Virus record (IMG/VR): IMGVR_UViG_3300037249_001405
Location: 64,001-128,000 of that record
DNA: 64,000 nucleotides
Origin: a virus
Lineage: Duplodnaviria > Caudoviricetes
Reading direction: 5' to 3' (one strand)
The notes under the pieces were generated by a model. The model did no database searches. It was not told the origin of the DNA and was given only the letters and a program-made list of their open reading frames with translations. Positions 23,102 to 56,662 of this stretch are shown here, one piece after another (position 1 is the first letter of the stretch; each line of letters opens with the position of its first letter). The position numbers and the translations under genes are program-made.

Positions 23102-23226
23102 CGATGAGCCGACGGTATTCCGGCCAGGATGTTATCGAATAAGTCAAATTTCCCTTGATACCAGGGTGACATATTGGAAAGACAATAAAAAGCTGGGATG
23201 GCGGAACTGGTCGACGCGGCGGACTT

Positions 23227-23979
23227 AGTTCAACTCCGTTTTACAATTTTTTGGAACATAATTCTTTACTGTGATATTAATTTAAAAAGAAATCACATGA
23301 AAAAGAAGAATTATACTGACGAAGAATTTGTGGAAGCGGTACAAAAATCCAAATCATATTCTGGTGTTTGTAAATTTATAGGTCTATCTCCTAAAGGAGG
23401 TAACTTAAGAACTGTAAAGAACAAAATTCAGATAATGGGTTTGGATACAAGTCATTTTACTTTTGGTAGGTGGAATAAAGGATTAACAAGTGAGGATCAT
23501 AGCTCAATAAAGAAAAAACCTTTAAACGAGATTTTTAAAGAGAATTCTGGATGGAGTTCTCATAATATTAGATTGAAGCTATTCAGAGAGAAACTAAAAG
23601 AAGAGAAGTGTGAACAATGCGGTAGAACCGAATGGAATGGAGAAAAGATTCCACTAGAGTTACACCATATAAATGGTATTCATACTGATAATCAATTAAG
23701 TAATCTCAAAATCCTTTGTCCGAATTGCCATGCTCTTCTTGGATTTGACACCAAGTTTGGTAAATATAAAGTAAAAGAACGAGGTTTGAGTGCACCTGTG
23801 GTAACACAGGATGTAGAAGTGGGCTAATTCGGTGAAGGTGACGGCCTTTAAACGTCAATAACGCCGAGCTAAGTCGATGTATTTTATACATCGTAAATGT
23901 GTAGAGACTATACACCCACCACCCTACTTCTTTCAAGAAGGGGTGAAGACATAGTCCAAGCGGAAAAGATTTCCGTATG
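23227..23979 (+). mobile_element. Group I intron (IC3-like) in tRNA-Leu(UAA) anticodon
   Basis: Exon ends in U, intron ends in G; IGS TTTGAG; P3 GTGGG/CCCAC, P4 TTCGGTG/CGCCGAG, P7 GACTA/TAGTC in GTAGAGACTA and GAAGACATAGTCC. Confidence 0.92.
23297..23827 (+). CDS. Intron-encoded HNH homing endonuclease
   Basis: CEQCG...LELHHING...DNQLSNLKILCPNCH; true start MKKKNY at 23297. Confidence 0.92.
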   Translation: MKKKNYTDEEFVEAVQKSKSYSGVCKFIGLSPKGGNLRTVKNKIQIMGLDTSHFTFGRWNKGLTSEDHSSIKKKPLNEIFKENSGWSSHNIRLKLFREKLKEEKCEQCGRTEWNGEKIPLELHHINGIHTDNQLSNLKILCPNCHALLGFDTKFGKYKVKERGLSAPVVTQDVEVG

Positions 23980-24048
23980 AAAATCCGCTGGGCAGTAATG
24001 CCCTTGGGGGTTCGAATCCCCCTCCCAGTACCCAGGTGCGAATACTAA

Positions 24049-24222
24049 GATGACTCCCAGACGTTTGGGTCATCGGATGAGTCGGCAGAGATATGGCGCC
24101 GTATCTCGACTCTTATGGGCAACCCCCCGACTGTACCACATGCCGAGTAGGTACATCGCTACTATTTGCTTTAGTCTGGAAGTGGGTAGTAGTTCCTAGC
24201 GGGAAAAGATAAAATAGCTAGG
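24049..24222 (+). ncRNA. Putative structured RNA in tRNA spacer
   Basis: GC-rich tandem hairpins GATGAC/GTCATC, GAGTCG/CGACTC, TGTACC/GGTACA, CCTAGC/GCTAGG; no ORF. Confidence 0.5.
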
Positions 24223-24235
24223 ATTTTTTTTTAAC

Positions 24236-24390: not shown

Positions 24391-24408
24391 CAAAATTCTC
24401 TCTCACCT

Positions 24409-24541
24409 AGGTGGTTGGCGTAATCGGTAGCCGCGCGGGGCCAACATCTCTCTGAGATCTGAACTCTGTGCCCTCGTCCTCCTTTCAGGCGACTGAATTT
24501 AGGGTAAGTAGGGCGTACAGGTTCGAATCCTGAACTGCCTA
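24409..24541 (+). ncRNA. tRNA-like RNA with expanded anticodon and variable arms
   Basis: Acceptor AGGTGGT/ACTGCCT, D arm, T arm CAGG-TTCGAAT-CCTG, ~80-nt structured middle without 7-nt anticodon loop. Confidence 0.7.
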
Positions 24542-24677
24542 GCGGAGAATTTTTTTTAAGAAATAAGAATAACTAATCAAATACGATTAGTTATTTTTTT
24601 TTTATTTCTTTCAAGTATTTCAGGAGTTCCCTTGAAATTCTAAATAATGATTAATAATAATTAAAAATAATATTAAT

Positions 24678-25847: not shown

Positions 25848-26231
25848 ATGGAAATTACTGAAGATTACGTAAGTTTTGAAATAGCAAAACTTCTTAAAGA
25901 AAAAGGATTTGATATAAGATGTAATACGTACTACATATCAGATAATGAGATTGCAGCATTACCTATTACAAGAGATTTTAATAATCACGGTATTTACTTA
26001 TCCGCTCCAACTCTTCAAATGGTAATGAAGTGGTTGAGGGAAGTTCATGGATTATTTATATCCATTGATAATGATGACCTTGGCTATAATTGGCAAATAA
26101 TGAATGTCGATATTAGGTCAGATAACGGTGATCCTACTTATCTGACAGATTCCTATGCTGGTTATAAATCTTATGAAGATACTGTAGAAGCAGCACTTAA
26201 ATATTCTCTTTCAGAAAAAATTAATCTATGA
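25848..26231 (+). CDS. Conserved Bacteroidales-phage-type hypothetical protein
   Basis: [17 protein letters not shown]...[16 protein letters not shown]. Confidence 0.8.
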
Positions 26232-26584
26232 ACTACAAAGAATTAATAGAGTTAATTGATAATCAACATTTCACTGATTGCGGTGAAGCTAAAGATTACA
26301 TACTTAGTAATAAATATGCTGAACCGTATTCACCAAAATTTAATCCTTTCGGAAGTTATTACTTTACATTTGATGGGGTTAACTTGGTATTGTTAAAAGA
26401 ATCTGGTCAGGTTAAACTAGCTAAAGTAATTGCCTTGAGTGAGATCAAGAAGTTACGTGAGGTTACTGGGCGTGGAATGATGGACTGTAAAAAAGCATTA
26501 GTTAAATCGGATGGAGATTTCGACGAAGCCATCAAAATTCTTGAAACGATACCTAAAATACTCATATATAGAGTGAATGAATAG
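26228..26584 (+). CDS. Protein with EF-Ts N-terminal (UBA-like) domain
   Basis: [33 protein letters not shown] matches the EF-Ts N-domain signature. Confidence 0.85.
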
Positions 26585-29667: not shown

Positions 29668-29679
29668 CGCTTACCGTGA

Positions 29680-29828
29680 GGCTGCGTAGCGCAATTTGGA
29701 TTAGCTTGAGGGATAAAAGTTAATCTGGAGGCCTCCAAACGAATGGTATAGTGGATGCTATACCGCCTGCTAGTATGAAGTAGGTTGTAGTCATCAGTCC
29801 CAAGAATCCGAGATCATACTATCGGGTT
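29680..29828 (+). ncRNA. Putative multibranch RNA with loop-loop complementarity
   Basis: Closing GGCTGCG/TGTAGTC, three internal hairpins, loop AGTATGA complementary to TCATACT in downstream hairpin loop. Confidence 0.6.
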
Positions 29829-29842
29829 CATTTAAAATATAA

Positions 29843-29916
29843 TCTGTTATAGCTCAGTGGATAGAGCGACTCTCAATTACTGAGAGAAGACGTGGACTCA
29901 ATCTCCTCTAACAGAA
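29843..29916 (+). pseudogene. Degenerate tRNA-like element (nominal anticodon TTA)
   Basis: Acceptor TCTGTTA/TAACAGA and canonical D arm, but non-canonical anticodon loop (AATTACT) and T loop (CTCAATC). Confidence 0.6.
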
Positions 29917-30116: not shown

Positions 30117-30124
30117 CATTTATA

Positions 30125-30337
30125 AATCACTACAAGTGGGTTTGTCATACCCTGCAATTATCTCTTCCCTAATAAGCCAGTTCTCAAATTCTAGAAAAGT
30201 ATGCTAGCGCATACATCGGGCTATGGGGGAGTCTTCTCATAAGCTAAATAGAAACTGCAGAAATTCTATTTAGTGAAACAGGAGAACAGTAAGGTCATAG
30301 GTAAAGAGAATACAGTATGATCTAAGAAGTAGTGATT
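30125..30337 (+). ncRNA. Putative ~210-nt rod-shaped structured RNA
   Basis: Nested pairs AATCACTAC/GTAGTGATT, TCATAC/GTATGA, TCTCTT/AAGAGA, GTTCTC/GAGAAC ending in three hairpins. Confidence 0.6.
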
Positions 30338-30354
30338 TTTTAGGAAATAAAAAC

Positions 30355-30671: not shown

Positions 30672-30744
30672 GCGCCAGTAACTCAGTTGGCTAGAGTACG
30701 AACTTTTAATATCGGAGTCCCGAGTTCGAATCTCGGCTGGCGCA
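30672..30744 (+). tRNA. trnK: tRNA-Lys(TTT), irregular anticodon stem
   Basis: Loop CTTTTAA; stem CGAA/TATCG pairs only with a bulge. Confidence 0.85.
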
Positions 30745-30761
30745 CTTTTTTATTTATTTTT

Positions 30762-31161: not shown

Positions 31162-31167
31162 CAAAAG

Positions 31168-31277
31168 ACACACTTGTTGATGCGTAATCCGAAAGGAGAT
31201 AAACATCCGGGGGTTCGAATCCCTCTCCTGCCTGAATGGGCAGGTTGGCAGAGCGGTTGATTGCAATGCAGGTGTGT
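31168..31277 (+). ncRNA. Circularly permuted tRNA-Ser-like RNA (YrlA/Y-RNA-like topology)
   Basis: Order: variable arm, T arm GGGGG-TTCGAAT-CCCTC, acceptor closed by loop CCTGCCT-GAAT-GGGCAGG, D arm, terminal stem ACACACTTG/CAGGTGTGT. Confidence 0.8.
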
Positions 31278-31298
31278 ATTTTTCAATGAAATTTTAAA

Positions 31299-31379
31299 GT
31301 GTATACAAGAGACGCAGGAGTTGTAACCCACCCGATAGCCTGGGTAGCTCAGATTTCATTAAAGAGCGCTTGTATATGC
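31299..31379 (+). ncRNA. Second, more degenerate permuted tRNA-like RNA
   Basis: 11-bp terminal stem GTGTATACAAG/CTTGTATATGC, closed hairpin ACCCG/TGGGT, then AGCTC...GAGCG D arm. Confidence 0.55.
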
Positions 31380-31502
31380 GTATGTAAGGAGTAATATGTT
31401 CTCTAGCGGAAGGCAAAGGCGATGATGGGGCTATTATGGAATCACCTTACTAAAAATATTTTAGGTTATTTGGACCAAGAAACCACCTTTCTTGGTCAAT
31501 TT

Positions 31503-31735: not shown

Positions 31736-31854
31736 CAATTAATTACTAATCATTAATGATTAGTAATTTTTTTTTGCTCATGAAATATGTTGTTATGAAA
31801 ATAAAAACCTAAATAAGTGATTAAATTTTACTCACATTAGTGAATAAGATTACT

Positions 31855-32121
31855 ATGAATGAAATTAATAATTAGATTACAAAAGCCGGTAAAATTCTTA
31901 CGAAAGATGAAATAGTATTATTTTTCGTTGGTTATATCGTCTTGAATTATATTAAAGATAGAGGGATTAACGTAATGGAAACTATAGCTTTATATTTTAA
32001 AGCAATTAAATCTGTCTTTGAAGAAGGAGGACTGAATGCTTGGTTATTACTGATATTCTTTGGATTAGTAATAGGCCTTGCTGTTTGGTTTTTAATTTGG
32101 CTCTTCTTTAAGAAAGATTAA
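31855..32121 (+). pseudogene. Membrane-protein ORF interrupted by in-frame TAG at codon 7
   Basis: MNEINN*ITKAGKILTKDEIVLFFVGYIVL...LAVWFLIWLFFKKD*; promoter motif at ~31804. Confidence 0.5.
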
Positions 32122-32322
32122 AGATAAACAAATACTTGATAGCCCGAGGAAGTCTGGGAATTCGGGGTAATAGAGCAGTCAAGTGGAATGACATAGTGAC
32201 TAAATTGAAGTGCCAGTTTTTAGAATTGGATATACCAGATGATAGCGAAGGTCACTCGATTCTTGAATAAATTATCAAGTATTAGTTTTTTAAATAAAAC
32301 ACACTATAAAATTAAAATAATT

Positions 32323-32502
32323 ATGGTATATACATCGGTATATCAAGCCTCTCAAAATCTAAACAATGTAATAAAAGATATTTTGAGCAGCGGTTACCCT
32401 ATCTATCTCACTGTAAATGGGAATGAGGTAACTTTAAACAATAAAAATACAAAAATAGAGGTCGGAAGTGAAGAAGACCTTGAAATTAACATAAAAGAGT
32501 AA
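32323..32502 (+). CDS. Small hypothetical protein
   Basis: Start adjusted to MVYTSV. Confidence 0.6.
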   Translation: MVYTSVYQASQNLNNVIKDILSSGYPIYLTVNGNEVTLNNKNTKIEVGSEEDLEINIKE

Positions 32503-32515
32503 AAAAAAATACAAT

Positions 32516-33226
32516 GACGTGCTGGTAAGGGAAAGATCTAAAAAATCCAACCCCAAATACGGCATCTTGAATTAACGGAATGTGGGTACGGCCTGGCGTA
32601 GGCTCCTTTATAAAAGCTGTACACTAAGACCTGACGGGGTAACTAATAAATCAAATATATGTAGACTTATCTCTCACACCTAGTGCAGGGTAGCGTGAGA
32701 ACTTATCTAGTCTCCGTGAGAATGTAAGTCCCAGCCCTACACTGGAGTGGAGCTGTTCTATAACCCGGGTTATAGGTGATATTACTAATCACGTAAGTTG
32801 ATTTTTTATTATTTCGGAGATCTCAATAAATTTATGACTAAATATAATCTCGAAAGGGTTTCCAACAATCTCAAAAAAGATTGTAAGTGAATAAAAGGCG
32901 ATGTCGGTTGTAATTAATCATGCCGAGATACCCCATTTTGAATCCAGGAGAATAAGAGATTGTATTGTATTGATCATAATAAGTTCAGTAGAGTCTATAA
33001 AGCTCGAGATTACTTGCTGATTATTGAGATTCGTGTCTATTTCGCTTACTCGTGTAGTTAGTGAAAGTCACTTATTCAGTAAAAGTGTCGGGTGGCTATC
33101 ACGGTAAATAACAGGTCCTAAATGGAATGTCTGATACCGATAAAAAATAAAGGAAAGTTATTTGCGCGATTACCCCTTTATTTGGTAGTCCCTGTATTTG
33201 GTGCTAATAACACATATCAGCATGTC
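32516..33226 (+). ncRNA. Large (~710 nt) structured ncRNA of uncertain class
   Basis: ORF-free; 12-bp terminal helix GACGTGCTGGTA/TATCAGCATGTC, further long-range helices; abuts tRNA-Arg. Confidence 0.75.
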
Positions 33227-33244
33227 TGCGTATTTATTATAAAA

Positions 33245-33318
33245 GGTCCCTTAGCTCAGCTGGATAGAGCAACAGCCTTCTAAGCTGTGGGTCGAAGGTT
33301 CGAATCCTTCAGGGATCA
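33245..33318 (+). tRNA. trnR: tRNA-Arg(TCT)
   Basis: ACAGC-CTTCTAA-GCTGT. Confidence 0.95.
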
Positions 33319-33398
33319 CTAGGATTGTCATTTTTTGCTAGAAGCATGAATCATTTTTGTCATGCTTCTAGTTTTTATTTTTACACACAATTAATATT

Positions 33399-41142: not shown

Positions 41143-41403
41143 CTACTTCTTTTTCTTTTTTGGAATAGGAGTAGTTCTTTTTTGTGTTGTATTAATTCTA
41201 CGAACAATACGTCCTTGTGATAAATCATATGCGGAGATTGATACTTCAACTTTATCACCTACCGTTACATTTATCTTGGCATTAGTCATTCTACCAGATA
41301 CTGTACAGGTGCATTCATGTCCGTTTGCTAATTGAACCTGAAATTTACCGTAACCATGTGTAGCAACAACCTCACCCTCTTTTATTATCTCGGTATTTTT
41401 CAT
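41143..41403 (-). CDS. infA: Translation initiation factor IF-1
   Basis: EGEVV...FQVQLANGH...SGRM...GDKVEVSISAYDLSQGRIVRR. Confidence 0.93.
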   Translation of the reverse strand: MKNTEIIKEGEVVATHGYGKFQVQLANGHECTCTVSGRMTNAKINVTVGDKVEVSISAYDLSQGRIVRRINTTQKRTTPIPKKKKK

Positions 41404-55857: not shown

Positions 55858-56662
55858 AAAACAACCCTGAGACTGTCGGGTTGTAATGAGTTCATTCACC
55901 AAGGTTGGCCTCGGTACGTCACACGCATATTTCTACACGTAGAGCTCAATGGCAGTTTGATAAGGTTCAAACCTAAACCTTTACTTTCATGCTAATAATT
56001 TCACCTTTCGCACCTAGTCGCCCTGGAAAGGCGTGCAGGAGATCCCTCCCCTTACCATGATGTTAATCCGCTACTCTTCAGCTACTTTCCTTGCGGTACT
56101 CGTAACTGCCCCCATTTTGCAGAGGGATAAGCCATTTTTCGCATAAAAGTGTGGTCACACTTTTGCTTTTTAAAGGAAATTCATTAATTTTCTTTTTTGT
56201 GTTTCCGGAAATAGCCATCCGGTAGCGGCAGTGAGAGTGTGGTGACCACTTTTTGTAGTTCTCTCCCTTTTGAGGAAAGCCCACTACGACACTCTCTAAG
56301 ACGACCTTTTGCATCAGTCATCTCTTTAACAGCATCTTATCAAGTTTGGTTAGTTTACTTGATCTCAACTGTTAATGATACACGCACTTGGTTGCTTATG
56401 CCTCGTACATAGTATCTCCGTGATTGTAAGAGCTATTTCTAACTCTTGCTCCCATTTCAGGAAGCTACACCCATCTTTTCGAACTCTTTGGGGATTCGAA
56501 CCTTCCCCAGATGAATGCAGTCATCATCGTTCCCTTCAATAGCTAGCTATTTTCATAACTAGTGGTGATCCTTGCCGGGGCCACCATTTATGCCCATTGC
56601 TGGGTTTATCCTTTGATTCAGTCGCTGAGGGCACGGCTGCCAGAATGTTTCCACTCTGGTAA
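55858..56662 (-). ncRNA. Probable GOLLD RNA (~800 nt)
   Basis: Dense hairpins, no credible ORF, downstream of tRNAs; AAAAGCAAAAGTGT...GCAGTTACGAGTACCGCAAGGAAAGTAGC...GAGTAG and 3' GTCTCAG recalled as GOLLD-like. Confidence 0.7.

Follow-up and report, generated by a model that had tools for sequence, protein, structure and literature searches.

Comparative sequence analysis indicates that the window (the whole 64,000-nt stretch of DNA analysed here) encodes a real, conserved, folded non-coding RNA of ~710 nt that is part of a phage tRNA cluster. This RNA is very likely homologous to syntenic giant RNAs of related phages that mimic the GTPase-associated centre (GAC), the uL11 site of 23S rRNA. 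Comparison with these relatives shows, at the level of sequence and predicted fold, that the window RNA descends from phage RNAs copying the 23S GAC, that it has kept the four-way junction and lost the tertiary bases, that this state is derived, and that the molecule is under purifying selection. With moderate confidence, we interpret it as a giant derivative of a GAC mimic that has lost uL11 binding and works through its body. To our knowledge, few giant RNA classes of bacteria and phages have been described, and none has a clear function; the window RNA would be a giant RNA whose origin can be traced, to a free-standing copy of the factor-binding centre of the ribosome.

Genomic context and parts of the RNA

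The window is part of a linear virus contig of 210 kb that is about 56% complete. Close relatives reach up to 304-354 kb, and the window phage is a rumen jumbo phage of ~350 kb; the sequencing runs containing the window stretch come from cattle, sheep and goat gut. Bacteroidales are a guess for the host made from the habitat alone, and a host search via an ABC transporter gave no host indication. Located at the end of a tRNA array, the RNA has a short ORF (32239-32502) on its 5' side and tRNA-Arg(UCU) on its 3' side. The tRNA is followed by a 608-aa gene, which has no family match and is therefore called portal-like by position only. The phage encodes about 19 tRNAs together with a GOLLD RNA, IF-1 and tRNA-like RNAs, and thus invests heavily in RNA near host translation. 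The parts of the RNA are as follows, in window coordinates, with the evidence in brackets.

32510-33232 (+): whole RNA, ORF-free, directly 5' of tRNA-Arg (fold, close relatives, RNA-library contigs)
32516-33226 (+): core, flanked by an A-rich outer stem, about 32507-12 with 33230-35 (consensus fold, relatives)
32516-32527 (+): terminal helix, 5' strand, in place of the top of 23S H42; a plain helix with no kink-turn (C-G to U-A and G-U to G-C in L111/L112)
32529-32553 (+): H43-like hairpin of 25 nt, the length of 23S 1057-1081 (consensus fold, register to E. coli)
32554-32562 (+): insert-bearing helix, 5' strand, replacing the 1082-1090 junction strand (covarying equivalents in L025, L026 and L027)
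32578-32632 (+): domain 1, a 7-bp stem (32586-92/32616-22) with an asymmetric A-rich internal loop, the signature of the giant subfamily (covariation, model R1)
32635-32816 (+): domain 2, multibranched, including the hairpin 32758-75 (consensus fold, relatives)
32820-33030 (+): domain 3, long and two-branched, with a hypervariable hairpin at about 32862-32888 (relatives, predicted fold)
33033-33071 (+): domain 4, a hairpin with a 5-nt loop (predicted equivalent in L022, L025, L027 and L113)
33094-33190 (+): domain 5, a three-way junction with two hairpins and an A-rich linker between them (layout matches L022, L025, L027 and L072)
33192-33200 (+): insertion helix, 3' strand, terminating in the UUUG of the family (relatives)
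33201-33213 (+): H44-like hairpin (register to E. coli, consensus fold)
33215-33226 (+): terminal helix, 3' strand (relatives)
33245-33319 (+): tRNA-Arg(UCU), the invariable downstream neighbour of every giant member

The insert in the window RNA comprises about 630 nt.

Fold, selection and transcription

A first-pass annotation, made from the sequence alone, had proposed a structured non-coding RNA of ~710 nt and unassigned class. This proposal is borne out, and the RNA belongs to a phage tRNA cluster and is outside Rfam. An Rfam scan of the locus and a BLAST search of the RNA against the INPHARED phages yielded no match. The fold of the region is more stable than that of shuffled sequences in two tests (z -3.85 and -2.98); z alone is modest evidence because a flanking control region reached values down to -2.2. 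Exact 7-mer complements number 39 in the RNA, compared with 20 on average and at most 38 in shuffles.

The window-type set consists of four distinct sequences, the window RNA, L071 (= L087), L111 and L112, the three relatives being 89-97% identical. Other exact-pattern matches (L020, L021, L122 and most of 33 metagenome matches) were rejected as chance, L087 being the only genuine one. Compensatory pairs among the four sequences are few (5 of the 216 pairs of the consensus fold), and most of the changes in helices preserve pairing. Among the window-type phages, the RNA diverges by 3-10% and the four-fold sites of the next gene by 15-24%; the RNA thus changes at half the synonymous rate or less, which argues for purifying selection.

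All the complementary strings listed in the first-pass annotation are present in the sequence, and the helices that they were taken to form fared differently on comparison with relatives. The terminal helix (32516-27/33215-26) shows one compensatory and one consistent change with zero broken pairs, and the relatives also support the 10-bp insertion helix (32553-62/33192-201) and the helix 32820-29/33021-30. The majority of the nested helices are likewise preserved, the changes in them being consistent or compensatory. The pairing 32845-53/33004-12 is present and invariant in the four sequences, but shares a strand with an 11-bp helix (32841-51/32956-66) that matches the architecture of the relatives better. 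Two proposed crossing helices, GACCTG 32628-33/CAGGTC 33112-17 and GGGGTAA 32636-42/TTACCCC 33170-76, do cross, but the pseudoknot that they would form is unsupported: in the consensus fold every strand is paired with a nested partner instead, imposing either helix raises the folding energy by 3.2-8.5 kcal/mol (pair probability <0.005), one pair of the second is broken in L111/L112, and the related giant RNAs contain no such complementarity above chance. Similarly, the 18-nt palindrome at 32758-75 exists (palindromes of at least 18 nt arose in 3 of 300 shuffles), but the dimerisation assigned to it lacks support. Only its 7-bp stem is conserved and the central 4 nt vary (ACUG in L111, ACGC in L112), so that it appears to be an ordinary hairpin rather than a conserved dimer signal. 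No conserved kissing loops supporting multimers were found.

The RNA is covered by contigs of four RNA libraries (rumen metatranscriptomes), from four studies, which span 32434-33271. This coverage fits transcription and is no proof of it, being at the contig level and possibly including DNA. The RNA contigs of two studies start at 32513 and 32519, but those of the two others extend 80-120 nt further upstream, which makes the starts no more than a weak hint; the region 31808-32275 is uncovered by RNA contigs, a gap that proves nothing. A sigma-70-like promoter at 32486-32515, the best local match, was rejected as it does not stand out from shuffles (11 vs 8.4 sites).

A phage family of GAC-mimic RNAs

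Five related phage lineages, with a neighbour protein 84-91% identical to that of the window, have an ORF-free RNA, 720-800 nt long, in the equivalent position immediately 5' of tRNA-Arg. The ends of these syntenic giants are a copy of the GAC split between positions 1090 and 1091, and their five-domain inserts, of 640-700 nt, are the largest among the members seen. A pattern made from the ends of the giants retrieved 43 viral loci from other samples, many of them amid tRNA genes. In the smaller members, the second half of the mimic follows 40-445 nt downstream, with the closing stem around both halves; this stem is present in every family member read. With the Rfam LSU model, a compact member aligns to H43/H44, and relatives match the E. 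coli GAC at 38-41 of 50 positions and keep its base triples (PMC2952862). The search patterns themselves account in part for the invariance of family positions 1068-1089 and 1091-1103, and given this bias we make no claim that the small members are more conserved than the giants.

Four inserts of 311-445 nt (L032, L058, L063 and L076) contain a near-exact sarcin-ricin loop hairpin; a copy of this loop is absent from the window RNA, its contig and the giants. Local alignment of the inserts with E. coli 23S, 16S and 5S rRNA gave no consistent excess over shuffles. Short words in domain 5 of the window RNA that match 23S 2448-2455 and 2456-2464 occur in no other giant lineage and are therefore taken as chance. 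On the viral contig of one member (L047:1687-2014), the GAC mimic has a complete class A RNase P RNA (264 bits) and a large tRNA array as neighbours.

The family is absent from Rfam 15, and the open-access literature searched contains neither a description nor a name for it. The family and the window RNA thus appear new relative to the published record found, provisionally so because the search was confined to open-access literature. Unannotated matches to the 5' half of the mimic are present in cultured phages, namely, Xanthomonas phage XaC1, Serratia phage BF, Cronobacter phage GAP32, Pseudomonas phage pf16, Erwinia phage pEa_SNUABM and others (the matching records include OR258281, KY630187, JN882285 and KU873925), which could serve as experimental systems. 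No homolog was found at the loci of distant relatives with a portal-like protein 54-61% identical to that of the window phage, and a complete, more distant relative of 353 kb has no mimic head, so that phages of the wider group can do without the element.

Homology of the window RNA to the syntenic giants

Six lineages have in common the site before tRNA-Arg and the portal-like gene, the length of the RNA, and a leader with an A-run and CAC that pairs with the 3' tail. In the stem of domain 1, five of the seven pairs change on both sides among relatives. A covariance model of this domain built from intact-head relatives only (R1) has its best match in the whole window at 32578-32632 (27.8 bits, E 8.5e-5; the next match scores 11.8 bits), and the window RNA, L071, L111 and L112 score 27.8-31.1 bits (E 5e-5 to 3e-4). 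With default filters, R1 misses L113 and L114, the stems of which are complementary by eye. Domains 2-5 match those of the giants in predicted layout and order; for domain 5, the MAFFT alignment was too poor for a model. The consensus fold contains a four-way head composed of the closing stem, a hairpin of H43 length, the insertion stem and the H44 hairpin. Neither BLAST nor an HMM of the intact giants that uses sequence only detected similarity to the window RNA, and the case for homology therefore consists of synteny, one covarying domain and predicted folds. The silence of the HMM is expected, given that the four-fold sites of the window phage and the phages of intact giants are already 47-59% different, and it still limits the proof.

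The other GAC-mimic RNAs of phages share with the window RNA the closing stem, H43, the insertion stem with its UUUG end, H44 and the location in a tRNA cluster. Compared with the non-syntenic mimics, the window RNA has an insert of about 630 nt (40-445 nt in theirs), no copy of the sarcin-ricin loop and a rewritten head. On these sequence features, it would belong to the GAC-mimic family by descent and fall outside it by functional signature.

The rewritten head

The window RNA resembles the 23S GAC (the top of H42, H43 and H44; E. coli 1051-1108) in the order of the helices, the length of H43 and the H44 loop. Unlike the GAC, it is free-standing and phage-encoded, has an insert of ~630 nt between 1090 and 1091, lacks Kt-42, and is without the triples, U1060/A1088 and A1067. 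In ungapped register with E. coli 1055-1104, the head is identical at 20 of 50 positions, compared with 37-45 in family members. Two H43 pairs are kept by compensation (1057-1081, A-U to G-C; 1064-1074, C-G to A-U); U1065, A1069, A1070, A1073 and A1077 are retained, and U1060, A1067, G1068, G1071 and C1072 are replaced. The H44-like hairpin keeps the loop U1094-A1098 along with C1100-A1103, and G1091-C1100, C1092-G1099 and G1093 are not kept in register. U1060 and A1088, a Hoogsteen pair in the GAC, are replaced by A1060 and C1088, and the strand of the 1082-1086 turn has become part of the insertion helix. Positions 1071 and 1072 are A, and 1091, 1092 and 1099 are changed, so that the triples G1071-G1091-C1100 and C1072-C1092-G1099, which hold H43 against H44 in the GAC (PMC2952862), are lost. 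At the thiostrepton site, formed by A1067 and A1095 (PMC1802607), the window head has U1067 and keeps A1095.

A model of H43 built from the small members (R2) matches every one of the 8 intact-type giants (37-58 bits) as well as E. coli 23S rRNA (43 bits), with no match in the window RNA, L071, L111 or L112. On an H43 PSSM the window RNA scores -35.8, E. coli 39.9 and the lowest well-registered family members 37-53. uL11 binding depends on the GAC tertiary fold (PMC6239185), and with both sides of the triples lost, the window copy probably no longer binds uL11. No intact mimic was found elsewhere in the contig, which is about 56% complete.

In a quick tree of the neighbour protein, the window clade is sister to L027/L072; the heads of the sister clade and the outgroups are intact, and the rewritten head is therefore derived. 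Another giant, L026:4947-5668, which lies on a different branch and is represented by one contig, lacks G1071/C1072 and A1095/A1096. Its sequence suggests an independent loss of the uL11 and thiostrepton loops, which implies that the head can be relaxed in giants. The syntenic series, with near-intact heads in L022, L025, L027 and L113, a partly deleted one in L026 and rewritten heads in the window clade, all on one body plan, provides natural controls for uL11 binding and for the role of the body.

A head that is still a ligand site, either GAC-like and binding uL11 via other contacts (the A-rich H43 loop on H44) or retargeted to another host or phage protein, appears unlikely, although it is the best of the alternatives. 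The preserved length of H43, U1065/A1073, A1069, A1070, A1077, U1094-A1098 and C1100-A1103 would fit such a role, as would the near-invariance of the head in the four window-type sequences. However, the head has lost both triples, U1060/A1088, A1067 and the 1082-1086 turn, L111 and L112 have lost one further loop base and L111 has gained one in H44, and no phage uL11 or bL12 gene was found in the incomplete contig.

A possible function in the body

Under the reading that we prefer, a derivative that has lost uL11 binding and works through its body, the window RNA would be transcribed together with the tRNA array and released by nucleases that process tRNAs, with RNase P freeing the 3' end at tRNA-Arg. 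Intact family members might capture host uL11 away from the ribosome, acting as a decoy or as a tether at the factor-binding site, which could blunt uL11-dependent steps, such as RelA activation, or distract ribosome-directed defences. In the window RNA, the head would act as an architectural clamp closing the molecule, and the selected function would reside in the body, given that the molecule is still conserved. By analogy with GOLLD and ROOL, the body may be a large RNA scaffold, self-assembling or protein-binding, a proposal to which we give slightly less than an even chance. Both head and body are conserved in the clade, and selection on the head sequence itself is possible. More tentatively still, a mimic could have gained an insert of ~650 nt and then, twice independently (in the window clade and in L026), dropped the uL11 surface with the architecture kept, so that a new class of giant phage RNA arose in which function passed to the body or to a head retargeted to a new partner, perhaps under pressure from host defences that recognise the mimic.

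It is improbable that the RNA is a decaying relic, merely a self-paired spacer that aids processing of the tRNA operon. Sequence turnover between lineages to the point of being unalignable and the headless 353-kb relative would suit a relic, but divergence at no more than half the synonymous rate, the prevalence of pairing-preserving changes in helices, and the maintenance of length and five domains in six lineages, far beyond the needs of a spacer, all argue against it.

Comparison with known RNA classes

Covariance-model searches found no match at the RNA locus to the ROOL model (RF03087), either at gathering or at E<=10 (the genome search produced no positive-control match), or to the conserved 3' domain of GOLLD (RF02032); neither Rfam models nor ARAGORN matched OLE, HEARO, RNase P, tmRNA or group I/II introns there. 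ROOL RNAs contain conserved pseudoknots and kissing loops that form a nanocage. Like GOLLD and ROOL, the window RNA is large, multi-domain, phage-encoded and tRNA-adjacent (PMC12286853), but it differs from both in the lack of a model match, in that no conserved pseudoknots or kissing loops were found, and in ancestry. The suggestion of the first-pass annotation that this is an unrelated ROOL-like RNA with pseudoknots, dimerising through the palindrome, is largely refuted and very improbable: size, phage origin and tRNA context resemble ROOL and GOLLD (PMC12286853) and complementary strings exist, but no ROOL, GOLLD, OLE, HEARO, RNase P or intron model matches, the palindrome centre is unconserved, the pseudoknots are disfavoured, and the RNA is apparently homologous to the GAC-mimic giants. 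The ancestry of the RNA, a derived member of a phage family that mimics the 23S GAC, had escaped that annotation.

The same annotation also counted two giant RNAs in the window, correctly so. The other one is a GOLLD-like RNA, the 3' domain of which lies at 55864-56296 (-), downstream of tRNA-Met (88 bits, E 3e-23, under the gathering score of 150); it is probably the first giant RNA of that annotation.

The rRNA-mimicking leaders of ribosomal-protein mRNAs (for example, uL1, uS8 and uS15; PMC10931766) embody the same principle, RNA mimicry of the rRNA site of a protein. Those leaders are cis-acting on the cognate operon, whereas the window RNA stands alone, is followed by a tRNA and has no ribosomal-protein gene nearby.

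Other RNAs and translation-related genes

The window contains several further elements related to translation. The phage IF-1 homolog is encoded at 41143-41403 (-), and a small protein with an EF-Ts N-terminal-like domain at 26228-26584 (+); the relative L022 carries an arginyl-tRNA synthetase gene. A group I intron (Rfam 23735-23976) with a gene for an HNH endonuclease (23198-23827) splits the tRNA-Leu-like gene at about 23176-24033 (+). A tRNA with an 8-nt anticodon loop lies at 30672-30745 (+), and its ortholog in L071 is a normal tRNA-Lys(UUU).

Downstream of tRNA-Gln, at 29668-29845 (+), there is a non-coding RNA that has no Rfam match, is 64-98% conserved in six relatives, and is covered by RNA contigs. 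It is followed by a tRNA-like sequence at 29843-29916 (+; 42 bits) that was missed by ARAGORN and by the whole-window scan. More folded non-coding stretches lie amid the tRNAs on the same strand (30120-30350, 24034-24230, 24395-24550 and 31165-31500), several of them conserved in relatives; the one at 24395-24550 resembles a tRNA with a large insertion. Outside the window, at C1:175624-176619 (-) of the same genome, about 900 nt of strongly folding non-coding sequence could represent a third large RNA.
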